From: Clostridia bacterium
Lineage (GTDB): Bacteria; Bacillota; Clostridia; Christensenellales; Borkfalkiaceae
DNA: 48,674 bases
NCBI GenBank assembly: GCA_017482415.1
Contig: JAFUMY010000112.1
Span: 1-48,674, forward strand
Reading direction: 5' to 3'
The stretch's first letter is position 1. Each line of letters opens with the position of its first letter. Position numbers and translations under genes: made by a program. Below, one piece after another: positions 711 to 43,744 of this stretch. The notes under the pieces were generated by a model that saw only the letters and a program-made list of their open reading frames with translations, searched no databases and had not been told where the DNA came from.

Positions 711-3700
711 ATGAAAACGTTGAGTATGAAAAAGCTTAAAGTAATCGTACTGTCGTGCCTGCTTTTCTTGGCGACCTTTTTTGGGCTTGCCATGTGGAAG
801 CTGGATTCTAAGACGGCGAGCGCAAACGTAACCTTGAACCCCGACACGTATAAAACGGCGGGCGGTTCCGTGCGTCTTTTTAACGACGAGGGGGACGTGT
901 ACAGTCAAAGAAAGGGTATTCGTTTCCATATTCTTTTGGAAAAATCCCTGTATGAAACGTACAGCGCGAATGAAAATTTCGTATCCTATACGGTCGTATT
1001 GCCTAAGAGTATTTTAGGCACGGCGGAGCTTGGCTACGATACTCCGAAAGCGGTAAAGATTAACACGACGGAGTATTGGCAGGAATACGACAAGGATACG
1101 TCCTTTATGGAATCTATCGCTTACATATACGATCTTCCTGCGACGAAGCACGCAACCGATCTTTGCTTTATGGGCGTGTTCTCGACGGACGGCGGTTCGA
1201 CCTGGAACAAAACGGACGTAGGCGTGAAGAGCATGGCGTACGTTGCAAAAGCGGCGCGCGACGATGCAAATGCAAACTGGAACGATACGCAAGAAACGGC
1301 GTTAAACTACTATATTCCTAAGTACCAATACACCTACCAGGTAGGCAGTGCAAAAACGACGGAAACCGTTGAATACGGCGACGCGTTGAATATTCCTACG
1401 CTTGCGGAAAACACGTCTTGGTGGTATGAAGAGGGCAACGGCGAGGTTGCGCCTCCTACGGCGGCTACGTTTGAAAACTTAGGCGGTGCGGAAACGACGA
1501 AAATTCAGCTCACTTCGACAACAACCAGTCAATTCGTTTTGACGGGCGTTAATTATACGGAAACAGGCTTTAAGGTATGGGCTACGCTTTCCGCGAAAAA
1601 CTTTGGTCACGGTACGACGCTCAGCCCTGAAAACGTTGATATGGTCAAGGGCGATGGCACGGTTGTAGAAGCGAAGACGGTTACGGTAGAAGTTGTAAAT
1701 ATCAATGAGAATGCGGCGACGGATGAGGCTAAATATGCCGATGCGAAATCGCAGCTTGTTATCAGCTTTGATTATGACCAAATTTCTAACGGCGATACGT
1801 TGACGATTTTGAAGAGCTCGCAGTTCTATTACAACGGTTGCTTGTACGAGTTGGGTACCGATTACACCTTCGAATACAACAACGCAAACTGGCAGCTTCC
1901 TCTTGGTGAAATCCATCTCGGAGACATTGCTACAATTGTGAATTATACGGAAGGTCCTGAAAATGATAAGGAATATAATATTCGTGTTACTTTCCGTAGC
2001 GATTTCTTAATCAACGGCGGTGCAACGCTGGAAAAGGCAGACGGCTGCACGAAGGAAAGCAGTATTTATATTACGCGTTTTATAGGTGGTAGCGTGGATT
2101 ATATCACCACCGGTTATTATTATTGGAACCAAGGCGCTAATAAAATCCTTGAACTTCCTCAAACCAACGATCTTTGGGGCGAAGAAGACGGCGACGTTTT
2201 GACGATTGAAGCAGGTACGAAGCTGGTACAAAACAACGGCTACTATGTATTTGCAGAAACGATTACGGCAACGTATAGCGGTGGTGTCGATTGGGTCTTC
2301 TCGTTTGATGAGCATAATATCACCGCGGGGGAATTTAAGACTGCAAGTACGCGAACGGAAATCGATAAAGATGGTAACGAACAGATTTATATTGACGTTA
2401 CGACGAACACCCGTTGGGCGGATAGGACGGTCAAGGTTGTACTCAATGACGGCAAGTTGACATATCACAATACCGACAACGTAACGGAGCTCAATCCCGA
2501 TAAGATATACTACCACGGCGAAACGGCAGCAAACGGCACGCAATATTCGCTGCTGCGTATCTATTTGGACAAAATGAGCGTAACGGGGGACTGGGTAACC
2601 ATCCCTGCTAATACAGAATTCTGGGTGGGCGATCAGATTTATAGATTGACGGAAGACGTTATTTCTTATTACGTGTATGAACCCGAAGTTGGCTCTGGTC
2701 AATGGATCACGAATCCCGAGGTTAAGGACATTTCGGGAGCGGATATCCTTTCGATGAGATTTAACACGGACGATAATGGTCAAACCTATTCCATTCGTTA
2801 TACGACGAAGGAAAGCTGGTCGGATTACGGTTGGAATCGTGTTATCGTAGACGATACCTTCATTGACGGCGAAGGCGTTGTCTGTCATGGTACGAATTAT
2901 TCAAAATTCTTCTATCACGGCGCAGGGAATAATCTGTTTGAAATCCAAGGCGTAAACTTTGGTGCGGCAGGTGGCTCTGTAACCATTAAGGCGGGCACGT
3001 ATTTGTGGCTCTTGAATAACAGCAATCTTTCGTTTGAGGGCGCTTACCGTGTTACAGAAGATTTGTCGATTAGCGTTTCCGGCTCGAACGGCTCACCTGT
3101 TTATAAGGACGCCAACCTTGGAACGATTTGCAAGAGCGATATTGCGAGCTTCAGACACGACGGTTCGCATAGCGGTGAAATTCGTATTTCCTTGAACGGT
3201 GCGCTGATTCAAGGCGTATACGGTTTTGCGGACGTAGACGGCACGGCTACCTTAAACGGCTCGGCTACGACCAGTGGCTTCGTATATGGGTACAAGGAAG
3301 GCGTATATACAGGCAATACCATTCTTGCGTTTACAGGCGAGGATTTTGGAAAAGCATTCCAGGCAACGGCGGTGGGCGATAAGCTTTCGGTTGCGGAAGG
3401 TACGAAGCTTTGGCTTAGAGATGGCGCGGGTTACGTATTGATTGGCGATACGTGGAATTACGTTTGGAACGGCTCTACGTACGTAGACCGCGAGGCGACC
3501 TATGCGGTAAGCTTCAATGTGGCGAATGCAAAAATTACCGTAGACGACGAGGAGGTTACAAACGTAGCAGTTCAAGCGGGCGATCGCGTAACCTTCAAGA
3601 TTACCCCGAACGCAGGCTGCGAACTTTTGTCGGTAACGGGCGCAACGCAGAATCCTGACGGCTCGTATACGACCGATTATATCTTCAGCGGTACGACGGT

Positions 3701-4883
3701 TACGGTCAATGCGGCGGCTTACATTGATTTGGGCCTGAACTGTGTAAGCGGTATTAGCCGCTATAAGGAAGGTGTATATACGGGCGTTCGTATCAATCTG
3801 AATGAATCGGCGGTTGCAGGGCTTAACAATATCAGCGGTGGACACTATGGCATGGCTGTGAGCGGTGAAATGTCGTTGCTTGTCGGCGGCGTTGACGCAA
3901 ACTTCGATGCTTCTGGTGCATTCAACTACTTTGGGGCTGAACACGGCTCGTTGTTAGAGCTTCGTTTTGATACGACGAATCTGGAAGCAGGGGATATGTT
4001 CACAATCAAAGCGGGCACGATATTCTCGCATTCGAATATCCCTTATAAGCTCAGATTCACCGTAGACGTTATGGGTATTTATAATGGTGCTGAATGGAAG
4101 CCCGTTCTTAACCCTACGAAAGTGGGCGAGTTGAATTGGAGCACAATCCATAGAATTGCAAGCTATTCTGACGTAAACAATGGCGTTCCGCAAAACTATA
4201 CGATTCGTATGAGCTTAACGGAGGAGCTGTTTGGCGGCTCGACAAGCTATCAGGTAGTAGTCGGCGGTAACGTTTATTTGAACGGCATGGCTTATACGGG
4301 TGCTTGGGCATACCACGGTAACGGCAACAAGATTTTGCAGTTGTCGAACTGGAACTATGAGGCAGGCGACGTACTCGAGATTGAGGCTGGTGCGAAGATT
4401 TATATGGGCTCCTCGTACTATGAAGTAACGGAGACGTTGACGGCGCTTTGCACCGCAAACGGAAACGGCGCTACGTGGAACTGGGTAAGAGAGTCCACGC
4501 CGAAGCTTGGCGAAATCGATTGGTCGACGGTAGGCAATATTACAAGCTTCTCCGATTTAAAGGACGGAGTGGCGCAGAATTATATGATTCGTATATTCTT
4601 GACTGAGGCATTGTTCAATGGCGCACAACAGAACCATACGATATTTGCGTTAGACGGCGTAACGCTGAACGGCAATGCATACGTAGGTACTTGGACATAC
4701 CACGGCGGCGTCAATAAGATTTTGCAGATTGACACGTGGAACTATAAGAGTGGCGACGTATTGGTGATTGCGGCAGGCACGAAGATCTGTACTTCGACAG
4801 GCTATTACGAGGTAACGAAGACCTTGACGGCAACCTGTTCGGCAGACGGCACCGGCGCAACGTGGAACTTTACGGTTTCCTAA
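711..4883 (+). CDS. Large exported repeat protein (1390 aa), function unknown
   Basis: GGAGG at 700-704, 6 nt before the ATG. The N-terminus MKTLSMKKLKVIVLSCLLFLATFFGLAMW...TASA|NV looks like a signal peptide or signal anchor with an A-x-A cleavage site. At least 7 divergent modules share an aromatic-aromatic-(H/N)-G...N-(K)-I-L ... G-D-x-(L/V)-x-I-x-A-G-(T/A)-K core. The last two units (about 4111-4496 and 4497-4880) are clear tandem copies. No LPXTG or other anchor motif seen. Confidence 0.85.
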   Translation: MKTLSMKKLKVIVLSCLLFLATFFGLAMWKLDSKTASANVTLNPDTYKTAGGSVRLFNDEGDVYSQRKGIRFHILLEKSLYETYSANENFVSYTVVLPKSILGTAELGYDTPKAVKINTTEYWQEYDKDTSFMESIAYIYDLPATKHATDLCFMGVFSTDGGSTWNKTDVGVKSMAYVAKAARDDANANWNDTQETALNYYIPKYQYTYQVGSAKTTETVEYGDALNIPTLAENTSWWYEEGNGEVAPPTAATFENLGGAETTKIQLTSTTTSQFVLTGVNYTETGFKVWATLSAKNFGHGTTLSPENVDMVKGDGTVVEAKTVTVEVVNINENAATDEAKYADAKSQLVISFDYDQISNGDTLTILKSSQFYYNGCLYELGTDYTFEYNNANWQLPLGEIHLGDIATIVNYTEGPENDKEYNIRVTFRSDFLINGGATLEKADGCTKESSIYITRFIGGSVDYITTGYYYWNQGANKILELPQTNDLWGEEDGDVLTIEAGTKLVQNNGYYVFAETITATYSGGVDWVFSFDEHNITAGEFKTASTRTEIDKDGNEQIYIDVTTNTRWADRTVKVVLNDGKLTYHNTDNVTELNPDKIYYHGETAANGTQYSLLRIYLDKMSVTGDWVTIPANTEFWVGDQIYRLTEDVISYYVYEPEVGSGQWITNPEVKDISGADILSMRFNTDDNGQTYSIRYTTKESWSDYGWNRVIVDDTFIDGEGVVCHGTNYSKFFYHGAGNNLFEIQGVNFGAAGGSVTIKAGTYLWLLNNSNLSFEGAYRVTEDLSISVSGSNGSPVYKDANLGTICKSDIASFRHDGSHSGEIRISLNGALIQGVYGFADVDGTATLNGSATTSGFVYGYKEGVYTGNTILAFTGEDFGKAFQATAVGDKLSVAEGTKLWLRDGAGYVLIGDTWNYVWNGSTYVDREATYAVSFNVANAKITVDDEEVTNVAVQAGDRVTFKITPNAGCELLSVTGATQNPDGSYTTDYIFSGTTVTVNAAAYIDLGLNCVSGISRYKEGVYTGVRINLNESAVAGLNNISGGHYGMAVSGEMSLLVGGVDANFDASGAFNYFGAEHGSLLELRFDTTNLEAGDMFTIKAGTIFSHSNIPYKLRFTVDVMGIYNGAEWKPVLNPTKVGELNWSTIHRIASYSDVNNGVPQNYTIRMSLTEELFGGSTSYQVVVGGNVYLNGMAYTGAWAYHGNGNKILQLSNWNYEAGDVLEIEAGAKIYMGSSYYEVTETLTALCTANGNGATWNWVRESTPKLGEIDWSTVGNITSFSDLKDGVAQNYMIRIFLTEALFNGAQQNHTIFALDGVTLNGNAYVGTWTYHGGVNKILQIDTWNYKSGDVLVIAAGTKICTSTGYYEVTKTLTATCSADGTGATWNFTVS

Positions 4884-4890
4884 AAACGAT

Positions 4891-4928
4891 AAAATCCTCT
4901 TACGGAAATTTCCGTAAGAGGATTTTTT
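4891..4928 (+). terminator. Intrinsic terminator of the 1390-aa protein gene
   Basis: aaaatcctcttacggaaa / tttccgtaagaggatttt is a perfect palindrome (core stem cctcttacgga, loop aatt, tccgtaagagg) running into a T-tract, 8 nt after the stop. Confidence 0.85.
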
Positions 4929-4930
4929 GT

Positions 4931-5162
4931 GGTGAAGTTTGTCTTTTAGACAAGTGAAGTTCACTTCGTGAGTGAAGTTTGGGCTATGCCCAAGTGAAGT
5001 TTTTACTTCGTAAAAGATATGGCTGTTATTTATACGTAAAAACCGTTTTAAATAAAGCCTAAACTAAGCTTGCCGATTAGGCAAGCTTAACTTCACTGTT
5101 CGCGCAACGAACAACTTCACTTGCTTTCAGCAAACTTCACTTGTCTAAAGGACAAACTTCAC
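4931..5162. repeat. Intergenic composite repeat element, copy A: four forward GTGAAGTT, a conserved core, four AACTTCAC
   Basis: GTGAAGTT at 4932, 4954, 4972 and 4994. AACTTCAC at 5089, 5113, 5133 and 5155. Spacing is 18-24 bp. Spacers are short palindromes (tgtcttttagaca, tgggctatgccca, gttcgcgcaacgaac, tgctttcagca, tgtctaaaggaca). The core 5002-5088 is about 90 percent identical to that of copy B at 11568-11802. Confidence 0.9.
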
Positions 5163-5201
5163 CTATAATAGACTTGATGATAAAAAACCTTTCCAATTCA
5201 C

Positions 5202-5244: not shown

Positions 5245-6252
5245 TTACAACAGCACTACGCCTTTTTCTGCACAGGTACGTCGGGTTTGTTCATCCCAAA
5301 GGGAAACCTGTACTTCGCCGATATGCGCTTTTCCAAGCAACAGCATGGAAAGCCTTGATTGCCCGATACCGCCGCCCATTGTAAGAGGTAATTTTCCTGC
5401 CAAAAGTGCCTTATGGAAGGGGAGTGCTCTGCGCTCGTCTAAGCCCGATTTTTTCAGCTGTTCATCTAAGGCTTTTTCGTCAACTCGAATACCCATGGAC
5501 GAGATCTCCATCGCACAGCCGAGTACGTCGTCCCAGAACAAGATATCACCGTTTAAGCTCCAATCGTCGTAGTCGGGGGCTCGCGAATCGTGCGGCTTTC
5601 CCGATTTCAGTTTATCGCCAATCTGCATAATAAATACCGTTTTATGCTCTTTCACAATGGCGTTTTCGCGTTCCTTAGAGGAAAGCTCGGGGTATAAATC
5701 TTCAAGCTCCTGTGAGGTGATAAATTTCACGGTACGTGTCAGCTCAACACCGATTTGCGGATACCGACAGCGCAGAAAATCGAGGGTGTCGCATATCGCG
5801 CCGACAATGCCCCGTACTACGTTTTTAAGATATTCGACGTTTCGAGTTTCAGGGGTGATAATCTTTTCCCAGTCCCACTGATCGGTGTACACCGAATGCA
5901 GGTTATCCATTTCCTCGTCACGGCGGATTGCGTTCATGTCCGTATACAAGCCCTCGCCTGCGGAAAAGCCGTAAACAGAGAGCGCCATACGCTTCCATTT
6001 TGCGAGCGAATGCACCACGACTGCATCCTTCCCCGTCTCCTTTAAATCGAAACGAACGGGGCGTTCCGTGCCGCTTAAATCGTCGTTTAAACCTGTCGTA
6101 GGGTCAACGAAGAGGGGGGCAGATACGCGTTTAAGGTTCAAAACGAGGCAAAGCCGCTCTTCAAAAGTGCGCTTCAATAGCCCGATCGCCGTCTGCGTAT
6201 CGTATAAGCCCAAAGCCGATTCGTAACCCTTTGGAATATATACCTTACTCAT
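5245..6252 (-). CDS. asnA: Aspartate--ammonia ligase (asparagine synthetase A), 335 aa
   Basis: Length and sequence are typical of AsnA (class II aaRS-like), e.g. MSKVYIPKGY...LYDTQ.AI, EISSMGIRVD, GGGIGQSRL. I chose the ATG (mirror 42423) 10 nt after gaaaagg rather than the GTG 4 codons upstream used by the track. Confidence 0.88.
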   Translation of the reverse strand: MSKVYIPKGYESALGLYDTQTAIGLLKRTFEERLCLVLNLKRVSAPLFVDPTTGLNDDLSGTERPVRFDLKETGKDAVVVHSLAKWKRMALSVYGFSAGEGLYTDMNAIRRDEEMDNLHSVYTDQWDWEKIITPETRNVEYLKNVVRGIVGAICDTLDFLRCRYPQIGVELTRTVKFITSQELEDLYPELSSKERENAIVKEHKTVFIMQIGDKLKSGKPHDSRAPDYDDWSLNGDILFWDDVLGCAMEISSMGIRVDEKALDEQLKKSGLDERRALPFHKALLAGKLPLTMGGGIGQSRLSMLLLGKAHIGEVQVSLWDEQTRRTCAEKGVVLL

Positions 6253-6529: not shown

Positions 6530-9500
6530 GTGAAGAAATGGCTCAAAAAAGCACTCGTTGCCCTTTCTTGTGTGACGCTTGGCACGACGTTGATGTTCGG
6601 CTTTGCGGCATGTAAGGACGACGAGGAAAGTTCCAGCGGTAAAAAAGACTCGTCTACGACGGCTTGTACGCACGTATGGAATGAAGGCACAGTGCAAACG
6701 GCGGCAACCTGTACAACGGACGGTAGCATGCTGTACACCTGTACGAAGTGTAGCGAAACGAAGACGGAAAAAATCGCAGGCGGACACAAGTACAACACGA
6801 CGGTTGTCGAAGCGACTTGTCTTTCGGACGGCTACACGCTGAACACCTGTTCGGTTTGCGGTACGACCCAGAAGACGAACGTAACGAAGGCGGGCGATCA
6901 CAACTATCAAGAAACGGTTGTAGCAGCGACCTGTACAACGGACGGTATGACGACGTATACCTGTAAAGGCTGCGGCGACAGCTATCGTAACGTCACGGCG
7001 CGCGCGACCGGTCACAACACCGATGGCTGCACGTGGACGACGGAAGAAGTGCAAATTGCGCCTTGCACCTATCAAGGTATTGAAACAACAAAATGTAAGT
7101 CTTGCGGCGAGTCTATTGTGGTTGTTGTAAGCGAATACCAAAAACATGCAAACACGCATGTTACCACTATGGCAGCTACTTGTACGACAGTCGGTACAAA
7201 AATGATTGAATGTAATGATTGCGGCGAAAGAATTACCGAAGAAATCGCAATCAATCCCAATGCGCATGATTGGCAGGTTAGCGGTACGAATAACGGCTTG
7301 ACGAGCTATAGCTGTCAGCACATCGGTTGTACAGAAACCAAGACTGTATTCTCTGCAAAGACGCAGACCTCGGCTACCGTTCCTTCCTCGGCAATTCAGG
7401 ATGCAGGCGAGGTAGAGCTTCAAAACGCAGCGATTAAGATGGACGAGGCTGTTAAGAATCAGCTCGGCAGCGCAGACGTTAATCTTTCGGTTGAAGAAGC
7501 GGACGTTTCGGGAATTATTGATAACGAAACGGCAAACAAGCTTGGCAATAACCCTGTATACAACTTCAATATGTCGAACGCAAGCGGCCCGATTAAGAAT
7601 TTCAACGGCGAGCTTACCGTAACCGTTCCTTATACGCTTGAATACGGTATGGACCCCGATGAGGTCAGCGTTTATTACATAAACGATGAGGGTAAAGTAA
7701 CGGCAATGCCTGCTACCTATTCCGAGGTAAACGGCGAAGGCTTTGCTACCTTCACCACCAACCATTTCTCGTATTATACGGTTATCCGTTTGACGGCGGC
7801 AGAACGCTGTGCAGCATACGGGCATACCTATAAAACGACGGTGGTTGATCCTGCATGTAATCAGCAGGGCTACACGGTAAAGACCTGTCTTGTTTGTAAG
7901 AAGGTTGAGCCCCGCACGAACTTCACGCCCGCGCTTTCGCATAACTATTCGTCGGCGGTCGTTGCGGCTACCTGTACGGAAATGGGCTATACCGTATATA
8001 CCTGTTCGCTCTGTAACGACAAATACGTTTCCGATTACACGGCAAAGGTTGCGCATAAGTATGAAGATAGCGTAACCGCACCTACCTGTACGGCAAACGG
8101 TTATACGACGCATACCTGTACGGTATGTAATTCGTCCTACACCGACAGCGAAACGGACGCAAAGGGCCACACCTATGCGAACGGCGCTTGCAGCGTTTGC
8201 GGTCGTAAGGACCCCAATGCGGCGACCAATAACTTCTACTGGAATATGGTAGAAAGCCTTGCGTTGGTAGAAACCTATTATCTTGAAGTAAGCGGCTTGA
8301 ACATCGAAATGGTGAATACCTATTCGAACGGTGACAAGCAGAACATAACCTATAAAATGTCCCTTGCACAGGTACAAATCGGATTCGACGAAACGGGTAT
8401 CGTAGGCAAAGGCGAGGGTACCATGGTCATGACGAACGAAGAAACGGGCAAATCCCCGTCCTCGGATAACGCTTCCGGCGTTATGAAATTCGTATTCCGT
8501 GACGGTATGATTTACGCATACACAAAGGCAACGGAAACAATGGGCGCTGCTTACGAACAGTATATGGTTGTTCCTCAATCGTATATGTTCGATATGGAAG
8601 AAGATGAATTCCCTGCGTTTATTCAAATGATGAGCGGCAACGTTGCAGAAATCGGCGGTTTGCTTTCGGGCTTTGGCGCAGGCGAAAACAGCCGTATGAA
8701 CAACGTCCTGAAAACGGTCATTGAATATTGTTTCACCAAGACCGAAACGGAAAACGGCTATATGTTCACGTTGAATGCAGACCGCGCGCTTGAAATGTAC
8801 AATGCGATTAAGAACAACACGGTTGATAAGCTTTTCGACCTCGTGTTCGGCGAAGGTGCGTTTGCGGCAACGCAGAGCTTCCTTGTAGCTTCCGTTGATA
8901 AGACGGTTGCCCAGTTTGAAGCGGACGTTAAGACCGAGCTTGCAGCATGGGGTATCAATATTGATACGGTATATACCTTTATCAACAAATATGCCGGCAT
9001 GATGGGTAACATGGGCGGCGGCTCTGTTGGCGGCAACGCTAGCAGCAACAGTAGTATGCCCAGTCAAGGTATTCAGGGAGGCGTGAAGCCTATGGCGGCA
9101 AACGAAGCTCCCGAAGCATTCGACATCAAAGCGACGATCGCGGAAATGGGCAACGTGAAGATTTCCGAGGTCCTCGACGAGATGCTTAGCGAAGTGGTAG
9201 AGGAAGCGATTGATTATAAAGCGATGATCAATGAGTGCGCTGAACAGCTCAAAGCGATGAAGATTTTTGATATGGCAGAGCTTTCGGACGGCGAAATTGC
9301 AGATATTCAAGCGACGATTGAAGACGTAACGAAGGCACTTCGTAACAACCCTGTAACCTTCACGACGGATAAATCGGGTGCGCTCCTTTCCTTCGGCGCG
9401 AAGCTTACTGATTTCGTTCCCGTAGACAATACGGGCAAGACGCTTGGTCAGGACGGTGTTTACACCCTTTACGACGTGAAGATTAACGGCGAATTTAAGT

Positions 9501-11506
9501 TCGTTGCAGACGGTACGTATGCAGGCGTATACGAAGACGTAGTTGCAAAGGCAGAAGCTGCAAAGAAAGCATATCAGTTCACGGAAGGCTTCGAAACGGA
9601 TAACTATAACGTTTACGTAGTAGACGGCAAGACCTATCTTTGGTACTTTGGCGGCGATTCGTCCGACGATTACTACTATGATGAAGAATGGTACCTTTCC
9701 GACTACGACATCGAAAACGTTTACGGCACGGAAACCTATAACGGCAAGACTTGCACGAAGGCAAGAATTCGTCTCACCAACCTCTATATGATGAGAGATA
9801 GCGACGTTGATTTCATGGCGTCCACCGATTGTCACGGTTGGTTGATTTCGGAAGGCTACTGGCGCGGCTACTACGGCTACTGCGATGCATGGATTGATGC
9901 AGACGGTAACGTGGTTGGCACGGAAAACGTACTCGTTCAAGATTGGAATCAGAGCCGTTACTTTACCCTTGCATACAACGCGGCGACCGGCGAATACGCT
10001 TCGGGTACGCAGCATTGCTACAAGCTGGTTGAAACGAAGAAAGGCGAAGGCTGTGCATACACCTATGAAATCTACGAATGTACCGTTTGCGGCGCACGTA
10101 CCGCACAGTACGTAGACGGCGGACATAACACCCAGATGTATTACGAGCTCGCTCCCGGCTCCACGAGCTGTGAGGACGGTGTATACATGTATTGGAAGTG
10201 CGTAGATTGCGACAGAATCACCTCTTTCCATAAAGAATATTATCATAATACCTATCGCCACGAATACGTAATTGAAGACGTCAGCGAAGAGTGCGGTGAT
10301 ATGGTTGTCGTATGGTATGAATGCGCTTGCGGTGCAGAAAAGTATATTGATCATTGGCAAGGCAACGGAAGCAATATGCATTATTTTAACAATTCGGATA
10401 GGCAGTATATCGTTGACGAGCATACGCATAGAAATTATATCGAAACGTACACCTGCTCGCTTGAGCTTTGTCAGTACAAGTACACGGTAGAATGCGATTG
10501 GAATTATAGCTACAATGGCACGGAGGACGGCTGTCAGGTATGGTCTACCTACACCTACCGTTTCTTCGATAAGGCAGGCAACGTAGCGCTTACGTTGGTG
10601 GATAACGAAGGACCGTATAACCGCCATTATTACGACACGTATTCTTCTACGGAATACAGCAATAAGTACGGTACAGGTTGGGAAACGAAATGGACCTGCC
10701 AGCACTGCGGTACGGTTACCTCTTGGTCTCGTAATACTTATGATGAACATGGTAGACAGACCTATTATGAGGACGTGTTGGGTACTTACGGTTGGTACAG
10801 AGAATACGACGAGTATTGCACGTACATGCAATATGACCTTAAAACGGGCGAGTATGAAACGAGCGGTACGAACCATAACTACCAATATGTAAGCGGTAAG
10901 GATGGCGATTCCTGCACGCAGTACTATTACGAGGGTAGAATTTGCAGCGTGTGCGGAGATGAAGACGGCTACTACCGCGCGCCTGATGAGCATTGGTGGG
11001 CTAACCACGACGACGGACACAACTGGTACTATAACGGTGACCATTACTATTGCGGACACTGCGGAACGGAAAGCTCCACGGGCTCGGATGCAATCATTTC
11101 CCTTGAGGATATGGTAGAAGACGGCGTGCTTAAGGTGGGTTACTATAACTACCGTGAATGGAGAGCCGTTCAAGGTCAGGATAGCCTTGTGCTTGTCGAC
11201 ATCGTTTTGAACTACGATTACAACAGCACGGAGCGTATTACCATCACGGCGGACGATTTGTACACGAAGGTGGTAACGAGCCCTGAAAACGAATGGAAGG
11301 GCGACCACTGCTACGAGCATAACCGTGAAAGCGGTATCGTAACCGTGAACATGGACGTTTTGAAGGCGTGCATTGCAGAGTTGGGAATCGAGGTAGAAAA
11401 CGTTGCCGTAATCTTCAGCGTTGAAGAAAGAACGATTGTTGAAGGCGGCGAGGCTACGTGGCTTGAAATGGCGTTGACCTTCGATGCTTCGGAGCTTGCG
11501 CTCTAA
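6530..11506 (+). CDS. Giant lipoprotein (1658 aa) with repeated Cys3-His modules, function unknown
   Basis: GTG start at 6530, 9 nt after GGAGG (6516-6520). MKKWLKKALVALSCVTLGTTLMFGFAAC is a lipoprotein signal peptide with a lipobox Cys. There are repeated modules of about 33 aa of the form (A)TC-x3-G-x5-C-x2-C ... (G)H-x-(Y/W). About 5-6 lie at 6660-7355, 3-4 at 7805-8215, and more degenerate Cys/His/Tyr/Trp-rich units at about 10005-11090. Confidence 0.85.
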   Translation: MKKWLKKALVALSCVTLGTTLMFGFAACKDDEESSSGKKDSSTTACTHVWNEGTVQTAATCTTDGSMLYTCTKCSETKTEKIAGGHKYNTTVVEATCLSDGYTLNTCSVCGTTQKTNVTKAGDHNYQETVVAATCTTDGMTTYTCKGCGDSYRNVTARATGHNTDGCTWTTEEVQIAPCTYQGIETTKCKSCGESIVVVVSEYQKHANTHVTTMAATCTTVGTKMIECNDCGERITEEIAINPNAHDWQVSGTNNGLTSYSCQHIGCTETKTVFSAKTQTSATVPSSAIQDAGEVELQNAAIKMDEAVKNQLGSADVNLSVEEADVSGIIDNETANKLGNNPVYNFNMSNASGPIKNFNGELTVTVPYTLEYGMDPDEVSVYYINDEGKVTAMPATYSEVNGEGFATFTTNHFSYYTVIRLTAAERCAAYGHTYKTTVVDPACNQQGYTVKTCLVCKKVEPRTNFTPALSHNYSSAVVAATCTEMGYTVYTCSLCNDKYVSDYTAKVAHKYEDSVTAPTCTANGYTTHTCTVCNSSYTDSETDAKGHTYANGACSVCGRKDPNAATNNFYWNMVESLALVETYYLEVSGLNIEMVNTYSNGDKQNITYKMSLAQVQIGFDETGIVGKGEGTMVMTNEETGKSPSSDNASGVMKFVFRDGMIYAYTKATETMGAAYEQYMVVPQSYMFDMEEDEFPAFIQMMSGNVAEIGGLLSGFGAGENSRMNNVLKTVIEYCFTKTETENGYMFTLNADRALEMYNAIKNNTVDKLFDLVFGEGAFAATQSFLVASVDKTVAQFEADVKTELAAWGINIDTVYTFINKYAGMMGNMGGGSVGGNASSNSSMPSQGIQGGVKPMAANEAPEAFDIKATIAEMGNVKISEVLDEMLSEVVEEAIDYKAMINECAEQLKAMKIFDMAELSDGEIADIQATIEDVTKALRNNPVTFTTDKSGALLSFGAKLTDFVPVDNTGKTLGQDGVYTLYDVKINGEFKFVADGTYAGVYEDVVAKAEAAKKAYQFTEGFETDNYNVYVVDGKTYLWYFGGDSSDDYYYDEEWYLSDYDIENVYGTETYNGKTCTKARIRLTNLYMMRDSDVDFMASTDCHGWLISEGYWRGYYGYCDAWIDADGNVVGTENVLVQDWNQSRYFTLAYNAATGEYASGTQHCYKLVETKKGEGCAYTYEIYECTVCGARTAQYVDGGHNTQMYYELAPGSTSCEDGVYMYWKCVDCDRITSFHKEYYHNTYRHEYVIEDVSEECGDMVVVWYECACGAEKYIDHWQGNGSNMHYFNNSDRQYIVDEHTHRNYIETYTCSLELCQYKYTVECDWNYSYNGTEDGCQVWSTYTYRFFDKAGNVALTLVDNEGPYNRHYYDTYSSTEYSNKYGTGWETKWTCQHCGTVTSWSRNTYDEHGRQTYYEDVLGTYGWYREYDEYCTYMQYDLKTGEYETSGTNHNYQYVSGKDGDSCTQYYYEGRICSVCGDEDGYYRAPDEHWWANHDDGHNWYYNGDHYYCGHCGTESSTGSDAIISLEDMVEDGVLKVGYYNYREWRAVQGQDSLVLVDIVLNYDYNSTERITITADDLYTKVVTSPENEWKGDHCYEHNRESGIVTVNMDVLKACIAELGIEVENVAVIFSVEERTIVEGGEATWLEMALTFDASELAL

Positions 11507-11526
11507 TAAAAACCGAATAGGTAACG

Positions 11527-11565
11527 GAAGCCGAGAGGATTATTCCTCTCGGCTTCTTGCCTTTT
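11527..11565 (+). terminator. Intrinsic terminator of the lipoprotein gene
   Basis: gaagccgagagga-ttat-tcctctcggcttc, a 13-bp perfect stem, followed by ttgcctttt. Confidence 0.8.
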
Positions 11566-11567
11566 AG

Positions 11568-11802
11568 GTGAAATTTGGGCTGCGCCTAAGTGAAGTTCAT
11601 TTTGTGAGTGAAGTTGCGCTGTTAGCGCAGTGAAGTTTTTACTTCGTAAAAATTATGGCTGTTATTTATACGTAAAACCGTTTTAAATAAAGCCTTAACT
11701 AAGCTTGCCTTAAAAGCAAGCTTAACTTCACTGTTTGCGTAGCAAACAACTTCACTTGGCTAATAAGCCAAACTTCACTTTTGCTTTAGCAAAAACTTCA
11801 CT
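11568..11802. repeat. Intergenic composite repeat element, copy B (same family as 4931..5162)
   Basis: GTGAAATT at 11569, then GTGAAGTT at 11590, 11608 and 11630. AACTTCAC at 11724, 11748, 11771 and 11794. It shares the core tttttacttcgtaaaa..atggctgttatttatacgtaaaa.ccgttttaaataaagcct.aactaagcttgcc...gcaagctt. The inter-9-mer spacers are palindromic like those of copy A, and the hairpin spacers differ in sequence. Confidence 0.9.
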
Positions 11803-12047
11803 TATCTTTTAAAATTCTGTCTCAAAACTCGCAAAAGCGGTTATATATCTATCGTAGGTTTACAAATTAAACAAGGGAAAGGCGTAGCTTGCGATATTTT
11901 TTAAAAAAACGAGGCGAAAATGCTTGGAGTTTCCTTTTAAATATTGTATAATATAAAGTGATGGTAAATTGCCTAAATATGCCTATTTGGTCTTGATAGG
12001 CTTAGGCAAACGAGACAAGAAAAAATAAATCTATCGGAGTTTTTCTA

Positions 12048-36872: not shown

Positions 36873-37107
36873 AGTGAAGTTTTTGCTAAAGCAAAAGTGA
36901 AGTTTGGCTTATTAGCCAAGTGAAGTTGTTTGCTACGCAAACAGTGAAGTTAAGCTTGCTTTTAAGGCAAGCTTAGTTAAGGCTTTATTTAAAACGGTTT
37001 TACGTATAAATAACAGCCATAATTTTTACGAAGTAAAAACTTCACTGCGCTAACAGCGCAACTTCACTCACAAAATGAACTTCACTTAGGCGCAGCCCAA
37101 ATTTCAC
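36873..37107. repeat. Composite GTGAAGTT repeat element, mirror of copy B
   Basis: Reverse complement of 11568..11802. Confidence 0.9.
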
Positions 37108-37109
37108 CT

Positions 37110-43473: not shown

Positions 43474-43512
43474 GTGAATTGGAAAGGTTTTTTATCATCA
43501 AGTCTATTATAG

Positions 43513-43744
43513 GTGAAGTTTGTCCTTTAGACAAGTGAAGTTTGCTGAAAGCAAGTGAAGTTGTTCGTTGCGCGAACAGTGAAGTTAAGCTTGCCTAATC
43601 GGCAAGCTTAGTTTAGGCTTTATTTAAAACGGTTTTTACGTATAAATAACAGCCATATCTTTTACGAAGTAAAAACTTCACTTGGGCATAGCCCAAACTT
43701 CACTCACGAAGTGAACTTCACTTGTCTAAAAGACAAACTTCACC
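43513..43744. repeat. Composite GTGAAGTT repeat element, mirror of copy A
   Basis: Reverse complement of 4931..5162. Confidence 0.9.

Follow-up and report, generated by a model that had tools for sequence, protein, structure and literature searches.

The contig JAFUMY010000112.1 of a Clostridia bacterium (assembly GCA_017482415.1), 48,674 nt long and analysed as a whole (hereafter the window), carries two copies, A and B, of an intergenic element in which invariant 9-mers alternate with short hairpins in two arms inverted around a core. The window is its own reverse complement with 0 mismatches, and its centre (24337/24338) reads GCGCGCGTCCCATGGGACGCGCGC. Because its two halves repeat each other, only the first 24.3 kb is independent, and each feature is present twice. 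This 48.7-kb perfect palindrome has the appearance of an artefact, from fold-back in assembly or in the library, and not of a biological feature. The first 24.3 kb contains ordinary chromosomal genes of a spore-forming Firmicute, including asnA, secA, prfB, tsaD and a spoIIAA/AB/sigF-like block, together with two very large open reading frames (ORFs; 711-4883 and 6530-11506) for which no Pfam or NCBIfam match was found. Both giant proteins start with a signal peptide, the second (6530-11506) has a lipobox, and the two are not related to each other. As a first-pass annotation of the sequence had described, each copy lies directly past a terminator-like hairpin of one of these ORFs. Copy A starts 4 nt past the terminator (4891-4926) of ORF 711-4883 and has the bidirectional asnA terminator on its other side, and copy B starts ~10 nt past the hairpin at 11526-11557, itself 3' of the stop codon of ORF 6530-11506.

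The identification of copies A and B as two-armed members of the Gut-1 repeat family (Rfam RF01706) is secure, and they are genuine and selected. The element is not new in kind, one of its arms being the Rfam Gut-1 RNA motif. What our results point to as new is the two-arm architecture, the taxonomic home of the family, and evidence toward DNA over RNA.

Hairpins of copies A and B and their relatives

Copies B (11567-11802) and A (4931-5163) follow the same plan, with four (A/G)GTGAAGTT words, a core and four inverted AACTTCACT words (Table 1). At ≤1 mismatch, the 9-mer occurs 36 times in the window compared with 9.7 ± 3.1 expected, and nearly all of these occurrences are within the elements. 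Copy B proved to be a real second copy in which the 9-mers and the core are kept, and the differences between the two cores are those first reported, namely a few substitutions, one 1-nt indel and a different loop in the aagcttgc hairpin. Spacers at matched positions of A and B are mostly unrelated (4/13 or 3/13 identical, or of unequal length). Two pairs are alike: the 9-nt spacer, rightly singled out before as the exception to spacer divergence (7/9 identical), and the first right spacer (11/15), which does carry the C:G to T:A double change (GTTCG...CGAAC in A, GTTTGC...GCAAAC in B). New as most of the spacers are, all 12 of them in A and B are hairpins, with 53 of 57 symmetric positions Watson-Crick paired against 15.5 ± 3.4 after shuffling (0/20,000 shuffles reached 53). 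Folded as RNA, each strand of copy B gave a z-score of about -8.7 to -8.9.

Outward promoter-like matches were seen at the right edges of both copies (5141-5169, TTGTCT-17-TATAAT, 10/12; 11786-11815, TTAGCA-18-TAAAAT, 9/12); they are consensus matches only and are built partly from the last hairpin and 9-mer.

Table 1. Positions of the elements and the adjoining hairpin in the window
Feature	Position	Strand	Remarks
Terminator-like hairpin of the giant lipoprotein ORF 6530-11506	11526..11557	+	14-bp stem, T-rich tail
Copy B, left arm	11567..11637	+	GGTGAAATT at 11567; AGTGAAGTT at 11589, 11607, 11629
Copy B, left-arm hairpin spacers	11576-11588, 11598-11606, 11616-11628	+	Parsed from the sequence
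Copy B, core (86 nt)	11638..11723	+	Small hairpin TTTTTAC-TTC-GTAAAAA; AT-rich long hairpin GGCTGTTATTTA...TAAATAAAGCC at 11657-11694
Copy B, core, 3' part	11698-11703; 11701-11723	+	ACTAAG; closed hairpin AAGCTTGCC-TTAAA-AGCAAGCTT
Copy B, right arm	11724..11802	+	AACTTCACT at 11724, 11748, 11771, 11794
Copy B, right-arm hairpin spacers	11733-11747, 11757-11770, 11780-11793	+	Centre of the first, GCGTAGC
Copy A	4931..5163	+	Left arm 4931-5001, core 5002-5088 (87 nt), right arm 5089-5163
Copy B, mirror image in the second palindrome arm	36873..37108	-	9-mer matches and palindrome
Copy A, mirror image in the second palindrome arm	43512..43744	-	9-mer matches and palindrome

The same property was found across the family. 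Of all symmetric positions in 262 distinct spacers, 87.7% form Watson-Crick pairs compared with 28% after shuffling, and 68% of the spacers are perfect palindromes compared with 1.4%. Covariation was scored on an alignment of 22 elements of type 1, defined in the next section, using four named hairpins and 500 shuffles. None of the shuffles reached the observed proportion of paired cells (94.4% vs 79.1% shuffled), the covariation score (0.407 vs 0.112) or the number of cells with two-sided changes (65 vs 17.6), and the pairing signal collapsed in shifted-register controls. Thus, the hairpin structure is under selection. Fold-back structures of the elements had z-scores of -8.7 to -15.6, and RNAalifold on full elements paired the invariant 9-mers across the arms; this cross-arm pairing is neither supported nor refuted because the columns concerned are invariant. 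The first-pass annotation had offered either selection on folding or active diversification as the cause of the variable spacers. Folding is what these results uphold, since hairpin frequency and covariation both exceed their shuffled nulls and hairpin potential is kept family-wide without sequence. Diversification did not hold up, with no reverse transcriptase or Cas gene nearby and with spacers that recur.

Gut-1 and the wider family

Compared with the Gut-1 covariance model, the left arms of copies A and B scored 41.1 and 38.8 bits, respectively (E 5e-5 for B; both about 1e-5), over the complete model (1-77/77), and the right arms matched on the minus strand with 30.9 bits (A) and 26.2 bits (B). 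All four arms of the window score below the curated cut-off for Gut-1, a gathering score of 50 bits, and the left halves of five type-1 relatives, which carry the same 8-mer, score above it (57.4, 54.2, 52.0, 51.0 and 50.6 bits). Three hairpins and four conserved UGAAxU words were found in both left arms over the whole model. Weinberg et al. reported Gut-1 in 2010 from human gut metagenomes only, with a consensus of four UGAAAU words and three hairpins between them, and proposed no function (PMC2864571). In the published seed rows with their flanks, the inverted partner arm is visible, for example as GUGAUAUU four times followed by AAUAUCAC four times, with hairpin spacers; it is not mentioned by Weinberg et al. 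(PMC2864571), and a literature search on 'Gut-1 RNA' found nothing past that report. The catalogued motif is thereby shown to form only half of a larger structure with two inverted arms.

The window element and Gut-1 are alike in their three variable hairpins, in the conserved (G)UGAAxU word between them, in a middle hairpin with a CUUCG-type loop and in gut origin. They differ in the word itself, which is GUGAAGUU in the window and GUGAAAU in Gut-1, and in that the published motif is a single arm whereas the window element is an inverted two-arm structure with a core. For a motif that has been an orphan since 2010, this study adds named lineages (Oscillospiraceae, Acutalibacteraceae, Christensenellaceae and Ca. 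Scatosoma) and a phage.

The family was searched in public genomes with three GTGAAGTT words at the right spacing, which gave at least 119 stretches, some of them unrelated tandem repeats. Loci were examined as 8-kb pieces (L numbers) together with the 24-kb unique window, and about 100 loci among the matches listed carry the family. Nearly all listed matches come from metagenome-assembled genomes of gut or rumen Clostridia, namely Oscillospiraceae, Acutalibacteraceae, Christensenellaceae, Ca. Scatosoma and Ruminococcus. At least one phage contig is among the carriers: in L021, which encodes a terminase and a portal protein, the capsid genes are bracketed by two complete elements of opposite orientation. 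No match was obtained when elements were compared by BLAST with annotated phage and plasmid collections. Searching metagenome contigs with the exact window core pattern gave no match, and a looser core pattern gave 119 matches, mostly by chance, with one true element (L294). Two known RNAs were seen close to elements: a GP20-b motif (RF03003, 52.3 bits) at L021 4684-4743, between the two phage elements and upstream of capsid-module genes, and a 6S RNA gene (Rfam, 58.1 bits) at L148 3880-4071, 62 nt downstream of a type-1 element.

The building block of the family is an invariant 8-9-mer (AGTGAAGTT; other strand AACTTCACT) alternating with short hairpins whose stem sequence is free and whose pairing is strictly Watson-Crick. 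Three or four blocks make up an arm, and the two arms almost always point toward one another as GTGAAGTT...core...AACTTCAC, with the order F...R in 36 elements and R...F in 1-2. Type 1 (~45 loci) reads from the left as an optional long hairpin, ACTAAGTTTGCC(C)-loop-(G)GGCAA and three GTGAAGTT words with two hairpins, followed by a TCGCC-TGAC-GGCGA hairpin, AGTG..GGGCAAACTT and four AACTTCAC words with three hairpins. In the window copies this order is permuted (type 2): the left arm comes first, and ACTAAG with the closed AAGCTTGCC/GGCAAGCTT hairpin is placed in the core just ahead of the right arm. ACTAAG and this hairpin of the copy B core are common to 45 relatives, and the core motif GTGGCTGTTATTTATA is shared by the window copies, the Ca. 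Scatosoma loci L125 and L064, and the metagenome contig L294.

Arms can reach 6-7 modules, and density ranges from 2 copies in 24 kb in the window up to 4 arms in 8 kb (L134). At L144 3596-3953, at least seven GTGAAGTT modules with identical repeated spacers are broken by a run of N, and this array coincides with an assembly gap. Such arrays can grow through tandem duplication and interrupt assemblies. Identical hairpins recur across elements and genomes, some at different arm positions, and 3 of 48 left-arm spacers are also present in right arms in the same reading sense, which suggests module exchange rather than stepwise compensatory mutation.

One subfamily (L155, L107, L154, L163 and L158) has further conserved sequence past the right arm, ~100 nt rightward from the last AACTTCAC. 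It includes a long hairpin CAGAAAAAGAGAG...CTCTCTTTCTG, terminator-like when read on the opposite strand, and after this the hairpins gggcttagccc and tttgactagtcaaa, so that the repeated unit may be about 400 nt. On both sides of the type-1 left arm (e.g., L155 2984-3085) stands a direct repeat, which reads GGGCAA or, in L084 and L142, GGCGA. The type-1 5' strand AAGTTTGCCC has two possible pairing partners, the nearby copy and the distant GGGCAAACTT, and all three co-vary in L084 and L142. The direct repeat and the dual pairing represent either an alternative-pairing switch or an insertion footprint.

Genomic siting and neighbouring genes

All elements are intergenic. Complete ones are located between 14 convergent, 11 tandem and 2 divergent gene pairs, and the elements avoid divergent promoter regions. 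Siting just after gene 3' ends or terminators, as first noted in the window, holds. The proposed tie to giant exported-protein genes was not borne out, as the immediate neighbours elsewhere are for the most part ordinary genes with housekeeping roles (ribosomal proteins, RuvC, GroES, Era, recO, cotJ) and the two giants of the window are unrelated. Thirteen copies of one subfamily are ~84% identical over ~205 nt with unrelated 1.5-kb flanks, and elements after rlmCD-like genes have left parts that are near-identical by eye (not quantified), where the proteins themselves are 37-48% identical. Similar copies with unrelated flanks indicate a dispersed, duplicative or horizontally moving repeat rather than a regulatory site kept in synteny. 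In a comparison with miniature inverted-repeat transposable elements, the inverted repeats are present as the arms, no direct repeat is seen at the ends of copies A and B, and the borders of relatives are uncertain because extra conserved hairpins lie outside the arms.

The only recurrent neighbour, at five loci, is a four-helix-bundle gene of PF05635/TIGR02436. In four loci, including L087 (637-1050), L084 (3613-4065) and L142 (4871-5398), this gene starts ~25 nt past the right (4-word) arm; it lies between R and F arms in L133 (2716-3072) and far from the detected arm in L161 (7273-7839). This family includes the 23S rRNA intervening-sequence proteins and Avd of diversity-generating retroelements (DGRs). 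At the ends of rlmCD-like genes (L141 5880-5925, L151 ~5280-5322, L084 ~4181-4225, L087 3060-3100), ACTAAG is preceded by a long hairpin formed by the last codons of the gene (…VE(S/T)VVCL…) and an inverted copy of them, with the TAA of ACTAAG as the stop codon. The second L087 element keeps an rlmCD 3'-end remnant without the gene. The GC skew of the loci had no consistent sign (14/23, 18/30) and no link to replication direction.

Several candidate identities were tried and rejected. A cassette or island is not supported, because the genes between paired elements mix accessory and housekeeping functions and include no recombinase. DnaA boxes, uptake sequences, LytTR sites, clustered regularly interspaced short palindromic repeats (CRISPR) and attC were set aside, since the word is confined to arrays and the layout does not fit. 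The elements are also not intrinsic terminators; their spacer hairpins precede AGTGAAGTT and not T tracts, and canonical terminators are separate and outside the element.

Strand evidence, competing readings and known systems

The G-T pairs from which the first-pass annotation had deduced an RNA of the + strand are present in the listed stems. The deduction failed family-wide. On the GTGAAGTT strand, G·T pairs (22) do not outnumber A·C pairs (34) among 1155 pairs, both being rare, and the 22-element alignment has 2 cells with one-sided wobble-type changes against 65 with two-sided changes. The loop is the sole asymmetric part of a palindromic hairpin. Loop statistics were scored on the strand reading 5'-AACTTCAC-3', which is opposite to the Rfam Gut-1 annotation and runs outward from the core in both arms. 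On this strand, GNA accounts for 55 of 124 triloops compared with 4 TNC, and GNNA for 24 of 55 tetraloops compared with 0 TNNC (GNYA, 16, exceeding GNRA, 8); the closing pair is 5'C-G3' in 160 of 192 hairpins (83%). RNA hairpins favour UNCG or GNRA loops, and neither is enriched on either strand. Exact GCGTAGC, GCGCAGC and GCATAGC spacers were found in the family. Copy B has GCGTAGC in the middle of its first right spacer and, read on the bottom strand, GCGCAGC in the middle of its first left spacer. It has been reported that GCGNAGC and GCGNNAGC form very stable DNA mini-hairpins (PMC13037366) and that d(GNA) loops are more or less stable according to their closing pair (PMC3201870); the extraordinary stability calls for a C-G closing pair (PMC13037366, PMC3201870). 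Compared with published Gut-1, the loop and wobble statistics thus favour the opposite strand, and DNA over RNA.

Considering these results, our tentative preference, to which we give somewhat short of an even chance, is for an element resembling bacterial interspersed mosaic elements (BIMEs) and REPINs (hairpin-forming doublets of repetitive extragenic palindromic, REP, sequences) that acts as folded single-stranded DNA and not as + strand RNA. The AACTTCAC strand, outward from the core in both arms, would carry the C-G-closed GNA/GNNA-loop hairpins; in DNA that is transiently single-stranded or extruded, a putative trans-acting protein could read the 9-mers held between them. The event brought about by this protein might be cleavage and transposition, priming, or recombination. 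The element would be multiplied or maintained like REP, BIME and REPIN elements, and hairpin modules may be swapped between copies by recombination at identical 9-mers. A more far-reaching version is possible but doubtful, namely that 'Gut-1 RNA' is mis-assigned and is one arm of an undescribed modular class of DNA hairpins in gut Clostridia and phages. The 9-mer would lie between extra-stable d(C-GNA-G) mini-hairpins on opposite strands either side of the core and would be read as single-stranded DNA by a candidate HUH/Y1-type enzyme, primase or PF05635 protein that drives spread or marks priming or recombination sites.

Several points weigh against the single-stranded DNA reading. Whether computed with DNA or with RNA parameters, nearest-neighbour energies give the AACTTCAC strand no advantage, the GTGAAGTT strand being 0.1-0.2 kcal/mol better because of G·T/G·U extension. 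Standard nearest-neighbour models lack special loops, so the argument for DNA rests on the loop statistics and the published special-loop stabilities, and the spacers counted are distinct sequences that are phylogenetically non-independent. No transposase, RAYT/Y1, integrase or primase gene adjoins the ~100 loci (66 immediate neighbours, 617 clustered ORFs), and no target-site duplication or direct repeat was seen at the ends of copies A and B. The Rfam curators rate Gut-1 as certainly RNA. Complete type-1 elements are clearly oriented relative to the upstream gene: in 31 of 45, an ORF running in the same direction ends ≤110 nt ahead of the element, and in 6-7 the ORF stops at the TAA of ACTAAG; this polarity would suit an RNA of a 3' untranslated region as well.

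The latter points belong to the strongest rival, a structured Gut-1 RNA transcribed with or just after the upstream gene, in which single-stranded GAA-containing linkers bind a protein or the arms pair into a long branched stem for processing or 3'-end protection. Such an RNA would agree with the full-length matches to the covariance model, some of them above the gathering score, with the strong hairpin covariation, with the z-scores of each copy B strand, and with the position of type 1 behind co-directional genes, sometimes giving their stop codon. It would also agree with the GTGAAGTT strand, which folds slightly better and in which additional U-A, U·G and G·U pairs can lengthen the stems until only GAA linkers are left, in line with the Rfam model. 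The near absence of wobble, the excess of two-sided over one-sided changes and loops that are neither UNCG nor GNRA on either strand argue against it. Because the arms are mirror images, no single transcript reads both in the same, favoured sense, and single arms occur in both orientations to genes (of 26 true single arms, 7 are co-directional to their neighbours, 6 antisense and 5 in divergent regions). In addition, read-through transcription of the window copies should be low because of the intrinsic terminators upstream of both and the bidirectional terminator after A. On balance we regard the RNA reading as unlikely, if still a serious candidate.

Two further readings start from the invariance of the 9-mers. 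An iteron-like or att-like array bound by protein as double-stranded DNA, with inverted 9-bp sites around an AT-rich core and element pairs bordering inserted gene blocks, would explain why the 9-mers are invariant and the rest variable, the inverted arrays of 3-4 sites, and the AT-rich core in the window type. Element pairs do flank variable sets of genes, namely recO and Mrr (L064), the four-helix-bundle gene and HTH-T5orf172 (L087), and asnA and a giant gene (window). The paired copies in L087 and the window have a near-identical centre and different outer parts, like hybrid attachment sites, and the rlmCD remnant in the second L087 copy points the same way. In contrast, the sites are spaced 16-24 bp apart without helical phasing, duplex binding gives no reason for all-palindromic spacers or strand-asymmetric loops, no recombinase or initiator gene is nearby, and most elements are solitary between housekeeping genes, which makes this array improbable. 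A site of active diversification, CRISPR-like or DGR-like, with spacers rewritten by dedicated machinery, might be suspected from the repeat-spacer-repeat layout with invariant repeats and variable spacers and from the gene of the Avd-containing family PF05635 adjoining five elements. We consider it highly improbable, as the repeats are just 9 nt, the spacers of 7-17 nt are all palindromic, no cas, reverse-transcriptase or similar genes were found near the elements, and the same spacers recur in different genomes and positions.

If the single-stranded DNA reading is true, annotation is affected, since on covariation alone a DNA element would have passed for an RNA gene, and the element bears on genome assembly, as arrays break assemblies (L144), and on genome plasticity.

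Three known systems that involve folded single-stranded DNA were compared with the element. Integron attC sites share the conservation of structure over sequence and the intergenic location, and attC is recognised as a folded single strand. They differ in the order of their boxes, R''(RYYYAAC)...R'(GTTRRRY) in attC against GTT...AAC in the present element, and the element loci have no extrahelical-base signature, integrase or cassette array. Single-strand initiation signals and hairpin promoters (the phage G4 origin, RSF1010 ssiA/ssiB and phage N4 promoters; PMC13037366) are alike in having clustered, stable GNA-loop DNA hairpins with C-G closing pairs. The hairpins of RSF1010 ssiA and ssiB are on opposite strands, and such signals function only in single-stranded DNA (PMC13037366). 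The present elements are dispersed in chromosomes between ordinary genes, whereas these signals occur once, as part of a replicon or a phage early region, and lack a repeated 9-mer.

REP, BIME and REPIN elements (Bertels and Rainey, 2011; PMC3116915) are likewise short extragenic palindromic repeats near gene 3' ends that are dispersed at unrelated loci, and their inverted doublets are foldable into a long hairpin in single-stranded DNA, most copies having no adjoining mobilising gene. In REP, the palindrome itself is conserved together with a GTAG foot (the 5' tetranucleotide), whereas in the present element conservation lies in the linker word and the hairpin sequences are free, and 3-4 (up to 7) modules are arrayed in each arm. 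The RAYT (Y1 transposase) of REP systems was not found among the 66 immediate neighbours or the 617 ORFs of the 8-kb loci. Since both the conserved palindrome and an adjoining RAYT are lacking, the element at most works like a REPIN and is not a member of that family. If it does act as DNA, gut Clostridia own a counterpart of REP and REPIN elements built on a different principle, with a conserved linker and free hairpins.

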